A stretch of 64,000 nt of DNA from a virus (taxonomy: Duplodnaviria > Caudoviricetes): the IMG/VR virus record IMGVR_UViG_3300010340_001122. One strand, 5' to 3'. This document shows positions 7,970-58,392 of the stretch, piece after piece. The notes beneath the pieces are model-generated. The model ran no database searches, was not told the origin of the DNA, and worked only from the letters and a program-made list of their open reading frames with translations. Positions within the stretch are counted from its first letter, which is position 1, and each line of letters begins with the position of its first letter. Both the position numbers and the translations under genes were made by a program.

Positions 7970-10290
7970 TGTATAAATATTTTGATTTTAGATACTTTAC
8001 ACTTTTGGAATCTATTTTAAAAGTCGATCCTAATTTTTTATCCTTAATTAAATCAATTGCTGATAAAGGAGATGCTGTTGGTAGTATGTTAAATAATTTA
8101 ATAAGTAAAGATATAAAAACTAATGTCAATTATTTAAAAGTTTCTGATAAAAATGATGACATGAAATTTGTAAATGATACTCAAGTGAAAAGATTTATAG
8201 ACGCTGGTCAAGATCCATTTGATAGAGCTACAAATAGTGCTAAAGTTGGTAGAACAGTTAGACAAATTTTAACTACAAATGGTATTTCTGTAACCGATCA
8301 ACAAATCGAAAAGTTTGTTAATTTATATAAAAATTCTTGGGACAAATCATTCAAAAAAACTGGAGAAGGTATCCATTTGGTTTCTGGAGAAGATATTAGG
8401 AATTGGTATCATCATTCCAAGTATGTTCCAGGCGGGGGTCAATTAAACAGTTCTTGTATGAGATATGATGAGACTCAAGATTTTTTAAACATCTATACTG
8501 AAAATCCGGAAGTTTGTCAATTAGTAATTTTAGTTGATGATAGAAATAGATTACTAGGAAGAGCATTGCTTTGGAAATTAGTTGATGGTATTAATAAATA
8601 TGGATATTATCTAGATAGAATCTATACAAGATTTGATAGTGATGGTGAGAAATTTGCTGATTGGTATAAGGATTTTATAAAAGCAACTGATGATGATTTT
8701 AAAGCACATTACATTGGTAGGACAAGTAATTGTAAAGTTCAATTAAAAAAATGGAAATTTAAATTTTATCCATATATGGATACATTAGCAATAATAGATT
8801 ATGAGACTGGTATTTTAGCGACATATCAAATAGAAGATAGTAAGAGATTACAATTACATATTCAAAATACTAGTGGAGAACCTTATGTTCCTAATTATAA
8901 TTGGTCTAATTTTCATCAAAAGTATATACCTTTGAGTGAATCGGTATATATATCAGGACGTCAGGATTACTTCTTAAAAACTGAGTGTGTTCAAGATTAT
9001 AAAAGCGATTGGATTTATAAAGAAGATGCTATTTATTCAGATTATTATCAATCATATATTAAGAAAGAAAATTCTCAAGAATTAGAAGGATTTGGATTAG
9101 TTGATTCTGATGATATATTGGAGGTTTATGACTCTATTGTGGATGGAGGACCAAGTGATATGAGAAAATTTTTATATACTAAATTAAAAGGATCAAAATA
9201 TGTAGAGGTTGATATTAGATGGAATTCATATTGGGTTAATAGTGATTTTTGTTATTATGATGCTTATGAGAATCATTATTTTGTTAAAACAGATTTAGAA
9301 GGTAGATATCAGAGTTTATATAGTGTTAGTCTTGAGGAATATAGTGATATTAATAATAATTTATTTGATAATTTATTAGATAAATTTAATAATTATTATC
9401 AATCATATGGATCGAATAGTGAGTTATATAAATTTCCTATATTTCATTATTTATATATGAATGGTGCATCATATAATGAAAAAGAGAGAGATTTCTTTGC
9501 AAGTGGTGAAATGTTAGATTTTTTAAATCTAAAACCTGATGGTAGAACTGCAGTTTATATGAAAAATAATGATTATTTTAAAGGTTTTTCTAAAATGTGT
9601 TATAAATATAATATTATAGAACTTAATAAATTATCTGAGAATATAGACGGTTGTGATATCAATCCTTTATTAAAAAAACTTAAAATTATAGATGGTTATT
9701 TATATTCTAATGATATTGGTAATTATCGAAGTATAAATGATACATATGCTAATATGATTAAGTATGGAACATTTACAAAATATTTAAATAACACTTTGGT
9801 AAAATTGTATAAAGGAGTTAATTTTACTGGTGTTCTTTTAAGTGATAAATCTATTAATGAATATTTTTCATATATTAAAAATCAAAAAGTTATAGTTATT
9901 AGCAATAATGGACTTGATTCAATAGATTTTAAAGATACTAATTTAAAAGATAATTTAAAAGATATACTTACAAAATTTAAAGAAATTTTATTATATTTTT
10001 CTTATTGGTATATTGTTTTGAGTAATGATGACGCTGCTTATATGAGGACAGAGGATTATATTTCAACAAAAGGTTTTGAAATATCACCTGATTTATTGAG
10101 AGTTCTTACATGGTTTTGTAGATATACTGATGTTGGTGGTGAGTATTCTGAATATTTACATGGAATTAGATCTTCAATTTCAAAATTTCCAACTTCGGAA
10201 TTTTTGAAAGAAAATAATATGTCTTTATCATCAGATAAGTCTAAAAAATCAATTGAGATTTATAATGACTTTTTAGATTTATTAAAATAA
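7966..10290 (+). CDS. Conserved phage protein (SCM / GRALLW / DRIY / PYMDT family) with long C-terminal extension
   Basis: 774-aa ORF; motifs shared with 5932..7113. Confidence 0.75.
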   Translation: MMYKYFDFRYFTLLESILKVDPNFLSLIKSIADKGDAVGSMLNNLISKDIKTNVNYLKVSDKNDDMKFVNDTQVKRFIDAGQDPFDRATNSAKVGRTVRQILTTNGISVTDQQIEKFVNLYKNSWDKSFKKTGEGIHLVSGEDIRNWYHHSKYVPGGGQLNSSCMRYDETQDFLNIYTENPEVCQLVILVDDRNRLLGRALLWKLVDGINKYGYYLDRIYTRFDSDGEKFADWYKDFIKATDDDFKAHYIGRTSNCKVQLKKWKFKFYPYMDTLAIIDYETGILATYQIEDSKRLQLHIQNTSGEPYVPNYNWSNFHQKYIPLSESVYISGRQDYFLKTECVQDYKSDWIYKEDAIYSDYYQSYIKKENSQELEGFGLVDSDDILEVYDSIVDGGPSDMRKFLYTKLKGSKYVEVDIRWNSYWVNSDFCYYDAYENHYFVKTDLEGRYQSLYSVSLEEYSDINNNLFDNLLDKFNNYYQSYGSNSELYKFPIFHYLYMNGASYNEKERDFFASGEMLDFLNLKPDGRTAVYMKNNDYFKGFSKMCYKYNIIELNKLSENIDGCDINPLLKKLKIIDGYLYSNDIGNYRSINDTYANMIKYGTFTKYLNNTLVKLYKGVNFTGVLLSDKSINEYFSYIKNQKVIVISNNGLDSIDFKDTNLKDNLKDILTKFKEILLYFSYWYIVLSNDDAAYMRTEDYISTKGFEISPDLLRVLTWFCRYTDVGGEYSEYLHGIRSSISKFPTSEFLKENNMSLSSDKSKKSIEIYNDFLDLLK

Positions 10291-55003: not shown

Positions 55004-55084
55004 ATGGCAACTTTTGAAACATATTATTATGAAGCGTATGAGGAACACTCAGCGACTGGCAATACTATGTTCGTGAAAAGTTGA
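55004..55084 (+). CDS. Leader peptide 1 (Tyr/Glu-rich) MATFETYYYEAYEEHSATGNTMFVKS
   Basis: 26 codons, 4 TAT + 3 GAA + 1 GAG within codons 5-14; A-rich 5' UTR; followed by terminator. Confidence 0.85.
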   Translation: MATFETYYYEAYEEHSATGNTMFVKS

Positions 55085-55112
55085 TATAGAATATTAACTA
55101 AAAACGCAAAGT

Positions 55113-55148
55113 AACCCAGTCATTCAATAAAAAATGACTGGGTTTTTT
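55113..55148 (+). terminator. Attenuator terminator 1
   Basis: AACCCAGTCATT-N8-AATGACTGGGTTTTTT; 5' arm can alternatively pair with GACTGG 55054..55059. Confidence 0.9.
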
Positions 55149-55161
55149 GTTTTAAATATAT

Positions 55162-55253
55162 TGGGGTATAACGGCAGGGCCACGTAAAGGCCTGACAGAG
55201 TAAAATAAGCCGTATGGATTACCTGTGAGGGGGTTCGATTCCTTCTACCTCAA
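55162..55253 (+). ncRNA. Non-canonical tRNA-like RNA, GTA (Tyr) anticodon, no D arm, long variable arm
   Basis: TGGGGTA/TACCTCA acceptor, GGGCC-ACGTAAA-GGCCT, GGGGG-TTCGATT-CCTTC. Confidence 0.7.
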
Positions 55254-55261
55254 CTAAATAT

Positions 55262-55333
55262 GGTCCCATCATCTAATGGTTAGGATACAAGACTTTCAAT
55301 CTTGAAATGCGGGTTCGATCCCCGTTGGGACTA
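55262..55333 (+). tRNA. tRNA-Glu(TTC)
   Basis: CAAGA-CTTTCAA-TCTTG; full cloverleaf. Confidence 0.92.
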
Positions 55334-55344
55334 CAAAAATATAT

Positions 55345-55428
55345 GGGAGAGTAACCGGTAATTGGTAGCCGCGCGGACTGTAAATCCGCTCTCATTTGAG
55401 ACTGGGGGTTCGAGTCCCTCCTCTCCCA
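55345..55428 (+). tRNA. tRNA-Tyr(GTA)
   Basis: GCGGA-CTGTAAA-TCCGC; long variable arm. Confidence 0.92.
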
Positions 55429-55434
55429 CAAAAT

Positions 55435-55508
55435 GCTCTTGTCGTCTAACGGTAGGACTCCGGTTTTTCAAACCGATGTAGATGCGGGTTCGATTCCCGT
55501 CAAGAGTA
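55435..55508 (+). tRNA. tRNA-Glu(TTC)
   Basis: CGGT-TTTTCAA-ACCG; GCTCTTG/CAAGAGT acceptor. Confidence 0.85.
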
Positions 55509-55513
55509 CAAAT

Positions 55514-55574
55514 GGGATATGTCGTCACAAGGGGTCTGTAAAACCCCTCAGAGGTTCGATTCCTTCATATCCCA
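55514..55574 (+). ncRNA. D-armless 61-nt tRNA-like RNA, GTA (Tyr) anticodon
   Basis: GGGATATG/CATATCCC, AGGGGT-CTGTAAA-ACCCCT, GAGG-TTCGATT-CCTT. Confidence 0.7.
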
Positions 55575-55580
55575 CAAAAT

Positions 55581-55624
55581 GGTCCGCCACGGAGAAGACA
55601 CGGGTTCGAATCCCGTACGGACTA
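55581..55624 (+). ncRNA. Acceptor + T-arm minihelix (tRNA-Glu-like remnant)
   Basis: GGTCCG/CGGACT, ACGGG-TTCGAAT-CCCGT; no D or anticodon arm. Confidence 0.6.
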
Positions 55625-55631
55625 CAAATAT

Positions 55632-55705
55632 GGCCCTGTCGTCTACGATGGCTAGGACATCACCCTCTCAAGGTGAAGAAGGCGGATCGACACCGCTCAG
55701 GGCTA
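55632..55705 (+). tRNA. tRNA-Glu(CTC)
   Basis: TCACC-CTCTCAA-GGTGA; atypical T loop ATCGACA. Confidence 0.88.
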
Positions 55706-55716
55706 CAAATAACTAT

Positions 55717-55802
55717 TGGAAGGTGGCAGAGTGGTTAAATGCGCTTGACTGTAAATCAAGTCTCTTCGGAGTACGGGGGTTCGAATCCCTCCCTTCCAAC
55801 CA
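55717..55802 (+). tRNA. tRNA-Tyr(GTA), CCA encoded
   Basis: CTTGA-CTGTAAA-TCAAG; variable arm CTC-TTCG-GAG; ends ACCA. Confidence 0.95.
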
Positions 55803-55821
55803 ACCAAAATAACGATTGATT

Positions 55822-56895
55822 ATGAAAGGTCTTCAAAGATTTCCAAATATATTCACACTACCAAATAGAAAACTTAGAATTAAATTTGGAATAGATCCAA
55901 CATCTGATAAATTACATTTAGGTCATTTAATTCCTTTACAGATTGTAAAAGAATTTAAAGATAGAGGTGACCAAATTGATATTGTAATTGGTACATTTAC
56001 TGCTCAACTTGGTGATCCAAGTGGTAAAAACTCAATGAGACCAATACTTTCTTTCAATCAAACCCTAAAAAACTCAGAGTCTGTAATTGAACAAATTAAA
56101 AGAATCTTAGGAAATGATGTCAATATACATCTTAATCATACATGGTTTGAGAACATGTCAATGATAGAGATGATGAATTTAATGTCAAAATTTACTGTTG
56201 GTAATTTACTTAATAGAGATTCTTTTCAAAATAGAATTAAGGAATCTAATCCTATTGGGATGCATGAATTAATGGTTCCAATTTTACAAGGACTTGATTC
56301 TGTATTTCTTAAATCCGATGTTGAGATTGGTGGTTCAGATCAACTTTTTAATTTCAAAATTAGCCGTGAACTTCAAGTTATTTCTGGTCAAGAACCAGAG
56401 AATTGCTTGTTAGCTCCTATTATTAATGGCACCGATGGGAGAAAAATGTCTAAAACATTTAATAATTGTATATTTATCAACGATACTCCTCAAGATGTTT
56501 TTGGTAAGTGTATGTCTATTTCAGATGATACAATGGAAGAATGGTCTCAAATATTTTTAATTGATTCAACCATTACACATCCGATGCTTAAAAAGAAAAA
56601 ATTGGCACATAAAATTACACATTTAATTTGGGGAGAGGATTTGGCAAATAGTGCCATGAATCATTTTGAGACTGTTATTCAAGGTCGAAATATTCCAGAT
56701 GAAATGCCTGAAACCAATGATAGAAATCTAATTAATGTTGTTAAAATACTAAGAAATACTTCTATTAACCAAAGTAGGAGACTTCTTGAGTCAAATGCTG
56801 TAAAAGTTAACGGTGAAGTTGTTAATAGTAATATTGAGTTATCAATTGGTGATGTTGTGAAAGTTGGCAAAAAAGATTTTGTAAAGATTGTTTAG
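55822..56895 (+). CDS. tyrS: Tyrosyl-tRNA synthetase
   Basis: KFGIDPT..LHLGH, GDPSG, LQG.D, GGSDQ.FN, KMSKT, C-terminal S4 domain. Confidence 0.93.
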   Translation: MKGLQRFPNIFTLPNRKLRIKFGIDPTSDKLHLGHLIPLQIVKEFKDRGDQIDIVIGTFTAQLGDPSGKNSMRPILSFNQTLKNSESVIEQIKRILGNDVNIHLNHTWFENMSMIEMMNLMSKFTVGNLLNRDSFQNRIKESNPIGMHELMVPILQGLDSVFLKSDVEIGGSDQLFNFKISRELQVISGQEPENCLLAPIINGTDGRKMSKTFNNCIFINDTPQDVFGKCMSISDDTMEEWSQIFLIDSTITHPMLKKKKLAHKITHLIWGEDLANSAMNHFETVIQGRNIPDEMPETNDRNLINVVKILRNTSINQSRRLLESNAVKVNGEVVNSNIELSIGDVVKVGKKDFVKIV

Positions 56896-56937
56896 TATGT
56901 GAATTTTTCATATATTAGCCGAGTATTAAATGTCCTT

Positions 56938-57294
56938 ATGATAACAGTAATAGATAGAAATATATTAAATCAATTAAACGAATCAGGTATTGTGCTTGTC
57001 AATACTGACGATATTGATGGTCTTCTAATGGGGAAAGAGTTAATGTCATCGTCTCCTGATCCAAATGAATCTAAATTAGTTCCAACGGTTTTATATTCTT
57101 TATATCTAACATTTAAAGAGATTGATAAGGTTTTTATTAACTCAGTTAAAATTTCGGATAAAGACATTAAATTCGTTCATACAGATAAAAATAATTTAGT
57201 AATAAGAAATATTGATTTTTGTGATGATATTGTAATAGATTATGATACAAAACAAGATATGAGAGAAAAAAAACTAAACAAATTCATAAAATGA
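56938..57294 (+). CDS. Hypothetical protein with C-terminal REKKLNKF motif
   Basis: ATG 56938; C-terminal motif family. Confidence 0.6.
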   Translation: MITVIDRNILNQLNESGIVLVNTDDIDGLLMGKELMSSSPDPNESKLVPTVLYSLYLTFKEIDKVFINSVKISDKDIKFVHTDKNNLVIRNIDFCDDIVIDYDTKQDMREKKLNKFIK

Positions 57295-57555
57295 CGACAA
57301 AAGAAAAAGCGATTCAAATTTTAGATAGATTTATTCAATTAAATGGAAATTCTTTCTTTGCTAAAGAATGTTCTATTTTTAGTTGATGAAATATTAAAAC
57401 AATTTGATGGTTTGCATAAACCTGAATATTGCGCTTTTGATGCGATAGGTGAGAGAAAATTTACATTTGAAAGTGAATATCCTAATTATATGACAGGATA
57501 TGATATGATTGAATATTGGAAACAAGTGAAAATTGAAATTGATAAAATTCTTTAA
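57291..57555 (+). pseudogene. Frameshifted MT.KEKA...AK.C...VDEIL...YW.QVK.EI-type phage protein
   Basis: MTTKEKA..AKECSI in one frame and LVDEIL..YWKQVKIEI in another; shift in T-run 57376..57380. Confidence 0.65.
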
Positions 57556-57563
57556 AAAAATTA

Positions 57564-57595
57564 TTAGGAAGATAAAACTTTTTTATATATATTTG
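57564..57595 (+). promoter_or_regulatory. Bacteroidota-type promoter for leader 2 / tRNA array 2
   Basis: TTAG-N20-TATATTTG. Confidence 0.7.
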
Positions 57596-57617
57596 TATAA
57601 CATAAAACAGAAATAAA

Positions 57618-57695
57618 ATGAAAGCAGTTAATAACATATCAATCATAGGGAACGGCGCGATAGCGGGCGGTAGACCCATTATGCTGATTGGTTAA
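57618..57695 (+). CDS. Leader peptide 2 (Ile/Gly/Ala-rich) MKAVNNISIIGNGAIAGGRPIMLIG
   Basis: 25 codons; 3 ATA, 5 Gly, 3 Ala; A-rich 5' UTR; followed by terminator. Confidence 0.85.
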   Translation: MKAVNNISIIGNGAIAGGRPIMLIG

Positions 57696-57722
57696 GTATT
57701 AACTCTTTCATAAAGAATACTT

Positions 57723-57756
57723 AAAAACCCAGTCAGTAAATTGACTGGGTTTTTTT
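57723..57756 (+). terminator. Attenuator terminator 2
   Basis: AAAAACCCAGTCAG-TAAA-TTGACTGGGTTTTTTT; 5' arm alternatively pairs with CTGATTGG 57684..57691. Confidence 0.9.
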
Positions 57757-57760
57757 ATTT

Positions 57761-57841
57761 CGGCAGGTACCGTTGGTGTCTTATACACACTATACACGTA
57801 GCGGGAAGTTGAAAACGTGGGTTCGAATCCCACTCTGCCGA
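57761..57841 (+). ncRNA. Non-canonical tRNA-like RNA, TAT (Ile AUA) anticodon, no D arm, long variable region
   Basis: CGGCAGG/TCTGCCG, GGTGT-CTTATAC-ACACT, GTGGG-TTCGAAT-CCCAC. Confidence 0.75.
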
Positions 57842-57843
57842 CA

Positions 57844-57917
57844 AACTCAAACTTGTGTTAACTCTTTGAGAGTGAAGTTGTGTACACAACAGGTTAATTC
57901 CCATAAGTCCCTGAGTT
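57844..57917 (+). ncRNA. Unidentified structured RNA inside tRNA array 2
   Basis: AACTCA/TGAGTT, ACTTGTG/CATAAGT, TTAAC/GTTAA stacked stems with two apical hairpins. Confidence 0.5.
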
Positions 57918-57920
57918 ACT

Positions 57921-57994
57921 GCAGAAGTGGTGTTTAATGGTTAGCATGTGAGACTTCCACTCTCAAGGTGCCGGTTCGAATCCGGTCTTCTGCT
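57921..57994 (+). tRNA. tRNA-Gly(TCC)
   Basis: TGAGA-CTTCCAC-TCTCA; U73. Confidence 0.93.
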
Positions 57995-58000
57995 CAATAA

Positions 58001-58072
58001 GCGGGTATCGTATAACGGTTATTACTCTAGCCTTCCAAGCCTGAGATCTCGGTTCGATTCCGGGTGCCCGCT
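58001..58072 (+). tRNA. tRNA-Gly(TCC), mismatched anticodon stem
   Basis: GCGGGTA/TGCCCGC, loop CTTCCAA, U73. Confidence 0.82.
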
Positions 58073-58121
58073 CAAAAAGATGGAAAACTTTTAAAACCCA
58101 TCCCACCAGGATGTAAAAATC

Positions 58122-58194
58122 GCGAAAGTAGCTCAGCTGGTAGAGCTTCTCCTTGCCAAGGAGAAGGCCGCGGGTTCAAGTCCCGTCTTTCGCT
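58122..58194 (+). tRNA. tRNA-Gly(GCC)
   Basis: TCTCC-TTGCCAA-GGAGA; canonical D and T arms; U73. Confidence 0.95.
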
Positions 58195-58200
58195 CTAAAT

Positions 58201-58238
58201 GCAGGATGATCCACCGTTGTATCACGGTGCCTGCTCCA
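58201..58238 (+). ncRNA. Gly-like minihelix ending in TCCA
   Basis: GCAGG/CCTGC-T-CCA with CACCGT/ACGGTG hairpin. Confidence 0.55.
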
Positions 58239-58311
58239 GGGGGATTAGTTTTAATGGCTAAAACACTTGTCTGGCTGACAAGATTTATCGGTTCGAATCC
58301 GGTATCCTCCA
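58239..58311 (+). tRNA. tRNA-Ala(GGC)
   Basis: CTTGT-CTGGCTG-ACAAG; G3:U70 pair; A73. Confidence 0.88.
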
Positions 58312-58317
58312 CAACAT

Positions 58318-58392
58318 GGGGGTGCATGTACTGAGGCTAAGCGAAAAGCACTTGCAATGCTTTTGATGTGATTTCGACTATCACCATCTCCA
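58318..58392 (+). tRNA. tRNA-Ala(TGC)
   Basis: AAGCA-CTTGCAA-TGCTT; G3:U70; T arm GTGAT-TTCGACT-ATCAC. Confidence 0.85.

Follow-up and report, generated by a model that had tools for sequence, protein, structure and literature searches.

What are the two genes that open the transfer RNA (tRNA) arrays of a phage when each has an acceptor stem, an anticodon and a T-arm and neither has a D hairpin? The arrays lie in a 64,000-nucleotide (nt) stretch of DNA, hereafter called the window, from the IMG/VR virus record IMGVR_UViG_3300010340_001122 (Duplodnaviria; Caudoviricetes). The window is AT-rich (G+C ~27%) and resembles huge uncultured phages; its top blastn matches are LR745206 (635 kb), other LR7565xx genomes, and the Lak megaphages. 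ARAGORN called two tRNA arrays on the + strand, one for Glu and Tyr (array 1, 55262-55802) and one for Gly and Ala (array 2, 57921-58312). Upstream of each are a short leader open reading frame (ORF) rich in the array's amino acids, a terminator with the stem CCCAGTC...GACTGGG, and an odd element, named here by its anticodon: the GTA element before array 1 and the TAT element before array 2. We consider it likely, as the best explanation of the whole, that both are tRNAs with a permuted D-arm, the TAT element serving as a working tRNA-Ile(UAU) and the GTA element being a class II version kept for its shape. As judged from sequence comparison, they belong to a real, conserved non-cloverleaf tRNA architecture of huge phages, for which processing and decoding are predicted.

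Both elements combine a 7-bp acceptor stem, A73, a T-loop of the TTCGA type and TA at positions 8-9, with no D hairpin and just 5-6 nt between TA and the anticodon stem. They stand where an initial annotation, made from the sequence alone, had located RNAs with TA plus a few nt in place of the D-arm (55162..55253 and 57761..57841), and their minimum-free-energy folds reproduce the topology that it had drawn. ARAGORN, run on the window, called neither element as a tRNA and found no transfer-messenger RNA (tmRNA), and the Rfam tRNA model RF00005 gave no match to either even at E<=10. The sole Rfam matches at the two elements were weak tmRNA matches (RF00023; 17.8 and 12.5 bits) that span the acceptor and T-arm only. 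The tmRNA reading was rejected, as these scores fall far under the gathering score of 47 and an mRNA-like domain is absent. A wider proposal, that the elements are tRNA-like regulatory or structural RNAs (a tmRNA-type domain, a Y-RNA/YrlA-type mimic or a synthetase operator), could appeal to the same matches and to the tyrosyl-tRNA synthetase (TyrRS)-type gene (PF00579 plus an S4 domain) downstream of array 1. We regard it as very improbable, given that the anticodons are isoacceptor-specific, that the genes sit among their isoacceptors with tRNA-like array spacing, and that the anticodon loop is canonical in all 71 members of the 81-nt Ile family to which the TAT element belongs.

Relatives were collected as follows. 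Homologous arrays were gathered through the conserved terminator stem, which gave many IMG/VR contigs of up to 476 kb (individual loci are given below by L numbers). Motif scans for the Ile type returned 28 distinct members in IMG/VR and 71 once metagenomes were added, and a covariance model, R1, was built from Ile members only. The parts of the TAT element are as follows.

57761..57841, + strand: predicted rewired tRNA-Ile(UAU) gene of 81 nt that heads the Ile/Gly/Ala array; it scores 98.5 bits with model R1 and has 71 distinct homologues
57761-67 and 57834-40, + strand: acceptor stem, read from the sequence, with T8A9 at 57768-69 and A73 at 57841
57771..57773, + strand: 5' strand CGT of the D' helix (equivalent to positions 23-25), pairing with 57796-57798; covariation and RNAalifold
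57775..57791, + strand: anticodon arm GGTGT / CTTATAC / ACACT, with TAT at 57782-84 and both U33 and A37 present
57796..57798, + strand: 3' strand ACG of the D' helix (equivalent to positions 10-12; Y11 pairs with R24); covariation and RNAalifold
57799..57816, + strand: relocated D-loop and connector TAGCGGGAAGTTGAAAAC, read as T13, A14 (57800), G15 (57801), G18 G19 (57803-04), A21 (57806) and C48 (57816)
57817..57833, + strand: T-arm GTGGG / TTCGAAT / CCCAC; 98.6% paired, with double changes in three pairs

The Ile family comes from huge-phage and metagenome contigs, and all 71 members are exactly 81 nt long with a TAT or GAT anticodon and A73. In the alignment of 28 sequences, all four helices covary: 99.1% of cells are paired, 17 of the 20 pairs show double changes, and the covariation score was reached by none of 500 shuffles, with slid controls nowhere near it. 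The anticodon stem is fully paired (100%), with double changes in 5/5 pairs. The D' helix, formed by alignment columns 11-13 with 36-38, is 97.6% paired, with double changes in two of its three pairs; one pair alternates between G:C and A:U, and the next takes four different types. Across the larger set, the D' strands are complementary in 69/71 sequences. RNAalifold, unaided, predicts exactly the same structure, D' helix included. Among the homologues of both elements, the acceptor and T helices are 98-99% paired and covary. A covariance-model search for the helix that replaces the D-arm had been proposed as a check at the outset, and the homologues do keep that pairing with covariation when the model is built from Ile members and the register in the TAT element is corrected. 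The pairing first drawn there (CCGTT 57770-74 with AGCGG 57800-04) can be formed on paper and is not conserved. That register (columns 10-14 with 40-44) is 78.8% paired over 16 homologues, its pairs 13:41 and 14:40 failing in about half of them.

The sequence that follows the D' helix indicates where the missing D-arm went. Directly after the D' 3' strand, the Ile family has T-A-G-Y-G-G-K-A, which reads as a normal D-loop, A14 R15 Y16 G18 G19 N20 A21. By alignment column, T39, A40, G41, G43, G44, A46 and C56 are invariant in the 28 sequences, as is G38, with which the D' 3' strand ends (57798). The D' helix itself corresponds to positions 10-12 paired with 23-25, with the Y11:R24 preference kept (Y in column 37, R in column 12) and 13:22 mismatched. 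The final base before the T-stem falls at position 48, and positions 15 and 48 form the classical Levitt pair of tRNA. Over 49 distinct sequences of Ile, Arg and Met-type members, 15:48 is G:C in 31, A:U in 18, and unpaired in none; in the Tyr family, the equivalent bases are T and A, without variation. The covariation of this pair indicates that the normal tertiary core of tRNA is preserved, with the chain threaded through it in a different order. As we read the alignments, the variable region, 3' of the anticodon arm, now holds the 5' strand of the D-stem and the D-loop, giving a strand order of 8-9, 22-25, 26, anticodon arm, 10-13, 14-21, and T-arm. The L-shaped core is probably retained with its strand order permuted, the helix being supported by covariation and the three-dimensional part being our inference. 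In structural terms, the short strand after U8-A9 would act as positions 22-25; the D-stem would still form and stack on the anticodon stem, and the GG of the D-loop could reach the T-loop. A neutral origin is possible, in which segment 10-21 was copied into the variable region and the original was then lost; in the intermediate, either copy would have been able to pair with 22-25.

The layout extends beyond Ile. Model R1 gave Ile members 90-104 bits, and no match outside the fold, a cloverleaf tRNA or any other, exceeded 34 bits. Between them, at 35-87 bits, lies a tier that shares the layout and carries the anticodons GAT, TCG, TCT, ACG (Arg) and CAT. The rewired arrangement is found with Ile, Arg, Met-type and Tyr anticodons. 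The relocated motif is TAAYYGG in Arg and GAT members and TATGG in the Tyr family (TATTGG in L360). Rewired genes for Arg-TCG (344211-344291), Ile-GAT (387977-388055) and Arg-TCT (388064-388143) occur in the published genome LR745206 (635 kb); tRNAscan-SE was used in the paper on this and related genomes (PMC7162821). The LR745206 Ile-GAT gene (L525:1501-1579) has an aberrant T-arm without a TTCGA-type loop. Another rewired Ile-GAT member, L366:3085-3162, has the loop CCGATAC with C33, so that departures at position 33 are seen outside the head Tyr copies described below as well. A smaller RNA was seen at L126 (near 8531-8650), L158 and L196. It has an acceptor stem and a T-arm, with a hairpin in place of the whole D/anticodon region and a loop reading TAACG..CCGTATGG, and it looks like a rewired core without any anticodon arm.

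Is the TAT element used in translation? Its loop, CTTATAC, has seven nt, U33 and a purine at position 37, and a canonical 7-nt loop (CTTATAC, CTTATAT, CTGATAA or CTTATAA) is present in 71/71 Ile members. The rewired Ile element adjoins Ile-GAT genes in many arrays. Among the loci examined, rewired and cloverleaf Ile-TAT genes never occur together, and the cloverleaf gene takes the same position behind the terminator in L001 (= LR745206), L032/L097 and L057/L062. The complete 362-kb genome of a relative, IMGVR_UViG_3300045970_000794 (G004), carries 40 tRNAs by ARAGORN, with Ile-TAT, Arg-TCG and Arg-ACG absent from the calls; rewired genes with the anticodons Ile-UAU, Arg-UCG and Arg-ACG are located inside its Arg and Ile clusters. 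On such sequence evidence, the phage most likely uses the TAT element as its tRNA-Ile(UAU) to read AUA codons. We suggest that it would be transcribed on read-through of the upstream ATA/Gly/Ala leader attenuator, released by RNase P together with a 3' nuclease, tailed with CCA, and aminoacylated by isoleucyl-tRNA synthetase (IleRS). Also in G004, a tRNA at 71732-71807 has a CTA anticodon (an amber suppressor, which ARAGORN labels 'Pyl') and hints at TAG recoding in that genome.

The GTA element has the same ends and a more elaborate middle. Its parts are as follows.

55162..55253, + strand: tRNA-Tyr-like gene (GTA), rewired and pseudoknotted, that heads the Tyr/Glu array, read from the sequence; 11 distinct homologues
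55162-68 and 55246-52, + strand: acceptor stem, read from the sequence, with T8A9 at 55169-70 and A73 at 55253
55171..55175, + strand: 5' strand ACGGC of helix a, in place of D-stem positions 22-25, pairing with 55209-55213; 55/55 cells paired
55177..55193, + strand: anticodon arm GGGCC/GGCCT with the loop ACGTAAA; GTA at 55184-86, C33 at 55183
55195..55198, + strand: 5' strand ACAG of helix b of the long variable arm, pairing with 55223-55226; 44/44 cells paired
55209..55217, + strand: 3' strand GCCGT of helix a (55209-13), then ATGG (55214-17), taken as A14 ... G18 G19 of the relocated D-loop
55223..55226, + strand: 3' strand CTGT of helix b
55229..55245, + strand: T-arm GGGGG / TTCGATT / CCTTC, read from the sequence

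The Tyr family comprises 11 distinct members, all of which contain CGTAT(T)GG, the motif used to find them. A tight DNA pattern for the type gave 10 loci, and looser patterns brought in mostly unrelated sequence among the matches listed. The pairing of ACGGC (55171-75) with GCCGT (55209-13), noted in the initial annotation, is borne out in every one of 55 cells over the 11 homologues, with double changes at two positions: pair 4 occurs as G:C, T:G, T:A, A:T and G:T, and pair 5 as C:G, T:G and A:T. Helix b is paired in 44/44 cells over four different stem sequences, a score inflated by the fact that the helix was located by complementarity; its fixed position is the real evidence, as it always begins 1 nt past the anticodon arm, and it ends 2-3 nt before the T-stem. 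Since the 3' strand of helix a sits in the loop of helix b, the two form a pseudoknot, and the relocated segment in the variable-arm loop would make the GTA element a class II form of the permuted tRNA. The relocated motif is CGTATGG in 10/11 homologues and CGTATTGG in L360, at the same position as in the Ile family.

This places the two elements in one register, in which C11-G12 pair with a C-G directly before a T-A-(N)-G-G motif, the relocated D-loop motif likewise being common to both. The GTA and TAT elements are class II and class I versions of one design. The initial annotation had taken the shared topology as a sign of a selected fold, and the common register, the D-loop motif and the covariation uphold that view.

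The two differ in their anticodon loops. Acceptor, anticodon and T arms had been described as normal in both elements at first; the description fits the TAT element and fails for the GTA anticodon loop, which reads ACGTAAA with C33 in the window copy and in L412. Sister copies have loops of nine nt (L044 and L406), eight nt (L046) and six nt (L032/L097, ACGAAA, in which the GTA triplet is gone). Five Tyr members (L049, L360, L263, L380 and L379) have CTGTAAA loops, G1:C72, A73, GTA and the long variable arm. The window copy has A73, GTA and the variable-arm stem and lacks both U33 and G1:C72 (T1:A72). Non-standard loops occur in the copies directly after the terminator (window, L044, L046 and L032/L097) and in their near-identical metagenome relatives L412 and L406. 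Canonical tRNA-Tyr (GTA) genes were called by ARAGORN in array 1 at 55345-55429 and 55717-55802. With such genes beside it and neither U33 nor G1:C72, the head copy is probably a poor decoder or none, kept for shape. As a speculation, it might act as a tRNA-like buffer, open to cleavage, that separates the terminator hairpin from the first working tRNA.

The main rival to shape retention holds that the GTA head element is a decaying, functionless paralogue of a once-working rewired tRNA-Tyr, with the TAT element still at work. In favour of this view, the window copy has C33, T1:A72 and a G.T acceptor pair, its sisters have loops of 6, 8 and 9 nt, the divergence from L044 is like that of spacers, and the two canonical Tyr-GTA genes would make it redundant. 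A neutral pseudogene, however, should lose its stems as quickly as its loops, and every head copy keeps all helices paired through one- and two-sided changes; the anticodon stem is paired in each, with several double changes between L046 and L032, and helix a pair 4 is T:G in one copy and T:A in another. The element has also held its place behind the terminator in two diverged clades. We consider decay an appreciable possibility and still the less probable account; the head copies have probably lost decoding and retained their shape, as far as comparison of the copies can tell. In the acceptor region of the GTA element (55162-55168 / 55246-55253), G3.T70 together with A73 makes up the classical alanine identity set. 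L044, L406 and L412 have a wobble pair at 4:69 instead, and G3.T70 in the window may be chance.

Several observations weigh against the explanation that we favour, beyond the inflated score of helix b. The D' helix of the Ile family has just 3 bp, one of them invariant. The three-dimensional claim draws on the identity of motifs and on a single covarying tertiary pair. Host tRNAs would also be available to a phage, and the filling of gaps in the G004 tRNA set is accordingly no proof of use. Finally, window and L044 are 86% identical over the GTA element, 82-88% over spacers, and 97-100% over neighbouring tRNAs, and the value for the element fits partial decay as well as a role in shape only.

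Why such a fold should exist at all invites a further proposal, compatible with permuted D-arm tRNAs and adding a claim to it: that the permuted arm makes Ile, Arg and Tyr tRNAs poor substrates for host enzymes that cleave or modify tRNA while leaving translation intact. On this account, the working non-cloverleaf set (Ile, Arg, Tyr and Met-type) was selected as counter-defence, and the head GTA copies, altered at positions 32/33, are uncleavable decoys, mimics that soak up a tRNA-Tyr nuclease. Anticodon nucleases are known for Arg (colicin D), Tyr (colicin E5) and Ile (a CdiA toxin), and some phage tRNAs have been reported to evade such enzymes. The identities in which the fold recurs are indeed few (Ile, Arg, Tyr and CAT), and among close relatives the anticodon arms change fastest while the relocated core is invariant. 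Stems normally outpace tertiary cores in any tRNA family, however, and fast anticodon stems prove nothing. Recognition by the known anticodon nucleases is through the anticodon loop, and that loop is canonical in the Ile family; neither a defence gene nor a nuclease target site links the fold to any nuclease. For the decoy, GTAA is retained in most head copies with a different position 33 in each lineage, but a constant anticodon loop would be expected and the copies vary; L032/L097 (ACGAAA) have lost the very triplet that a decoy should keep. We therefore hold counter-defence to be unlikely, though better placed than a regulatory RNA, and continue with permuted D-arm tRNAs as the favoured explanation.

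Does the fold belong to the head of the array? The initial annotation stated that each array opens with an RNA of this kind, which is true of the window and does not extend to its relatives. Heads of Ile/Gly/Ala arrays carry the 81-nt odd element in L036, L044, L096, L246 and L247 and a cloverleaf Ile-TAT gene in the loci named above. At the heads of Tyr/Glu arrays, the odd GTA element is found in L044, L046 and L032/L097, a cloverleaf Tyr-GTA in L057, a D-arm-poor Tyr gene in L001, and a Glu gene in L087 and L106. Ile-type members lie mid-array in L238, L239, L241, L243, L244, L245, L248 and G004, and the Tyr-type members with canonical loops in L049, L360, L263 and L379 do not stand directly behind a terminator. 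The head position tends to keep anticodon identity, not fold, and head-of-array placement is a property of the window's phage lineage, not of the fold. The cloverleaf Ile-TAT head genes L001:3517-3591 and L032:929-1003 have the T-loop ATCGTTA, in which A54 and T58 are swapped relative to the usual T54 and A58.

Searches elsewhere help to delimit the distribution. By blastn, neither element matched any of 50,697 GenBank phage records at E<=1e-3; the rewired fold is nonetheless present in GenBank phage records with other anticodons. A scan for the Ile motif in one genome per species (185,579 bacterial and archaeal species) gave 23 pattern matches, one of them too close to the locus end for scoring, and no scorable match folds as a member. 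A route to relatives in IMG/VR through TyrRS proteins found none, and full-text literature searches found no description of a permuted D-arm tRNA layout.

How, then, does the design compare with known tRNAs? A canonical class I tRNA-Ile (RF00005; e.g., L001:3517-3591) shares with the TAT element the 7-bp acceptor, A73, the anticodon arm with U33 and A37, the TTCGAAT T-loop, the equivalents of U8, A14, R15:Y48, G18G19, A21 and Y11:R24, and the array context. The TAT element differs in the order of its strands (22-25, anticodon arm, 10-13, 14-21) and in having no D hairpin. At 81 nt, with an apparent 'variable region' of 25 nt, it is missed by ARAGORN and the Rfam tRNA model. A bacterial class II tRNA-Tyr(GUA) resembles the GTA element in its GUA, A73, placement of the variable-arm stem and a neighbouring TyrRS gene. 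In the GTA element, by contrast, the loop of the variable arm holds the D-stem strand and the D-loop GG, giving the pseudoknot, and the window copy has C33 and U1:A72 where the bacterial tRNA has U33 and G1:C72.

Translation can use non-cloverleaf adaptors, as shown by mitochondrial D-armless tRNAs such as mammalian mt-tRNA-Ser(AGY) and by the engineered 'mini HisT' (PMC11551756, PMC9427863). In D-armless tRNAs, the contacts between D-arm and T-loop are lost and the fold is Y-shaped (PMC11551756). Where these tRNAs lose the D-arm, the phage elements keep the D-stem and the GG motif in a moved position, with the replacement strand paired and a canonical T-loop. According to textbooks and a 2024 paper (PMC11551756), every known bacterial tRNA is a cloverleaf, and armless tRNAs occur in nature in mitochondria only. 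The allo-tRNAs, with 8/4 or 9/3 acceptor/T-stem layouts (PMC5389517), are likewise non-standard layouts recovered from metagenomes and phages by structure-aware search; they alter helix lengths inside the cloverleaf, whereas the phage elements permute the strand order of the D-arm.

If rewired tRNAs are charged and used, bacterial ribosomes, EF-Tu, RNase P and synthetases would accept a tRNA core wired in a different order. Counts of phage tRNAs would be systematically too low (LR745206 carries at least three rewired genes), and the fold would offer a natural scaffold for orthogonal tRNA design. The head Tyr copies raise a question of their own, namely what role a shape-conserved and probably non-decoding tRNA mimic plays directly after an attenuator.

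The leaders of the two arrays complete the description of the window.

55004..55148, + strand: leader ORF rich in Tyr and Glu codons, followed by the terminator CCCAGTC...GACTGGG and a T-run, which stand 13 nt ahead of the GTA element
57618..57756, + strand: leader ORF containing ATA, Gly and Ala codons; the terminator after it shares the stem of the first and stands 4 nt ahead of the TAT element

As had been noted, the anticodons of the two elements agree with codons of their leaders: Tyr (TAT) codons in the first, ATA in the second. Units of a leader followed by the CCCAGTC...GACTGGG terminator recur in the window, L001, L012, L032, L035, L036, L044, L046, L051, L057, L062, L087, L096, L097 and L106, in front of arrays of three kinds: Tyr/Glu, Ile/Gly/Ala and Gln/Pro. 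Many leaders have, near their 3' end, a GACTGG-like copy of the 3' strand of the terminator, which could act as an antiterminator. Within array 1, a GTA tRNA-like gene at 55513-55567 has a canonical CTGTAAA loop, almost no D-arm and a short variable loop, resembling the head element of L001, and a Glu-like minihelix at 55581-55626 consists of an acceptor stem and a T-arm only. At the end of array 2, 58322-58392 gives a weak tRNA-like match (RF00005; 24.8 bits, under the gathering score). Between the Ile element and the first tRNA for Gly, a 79-nt spacer (57842-57920) is 95% identical to its counterpart in L044, conserved like the flanking genes, and may hide another small RNA.

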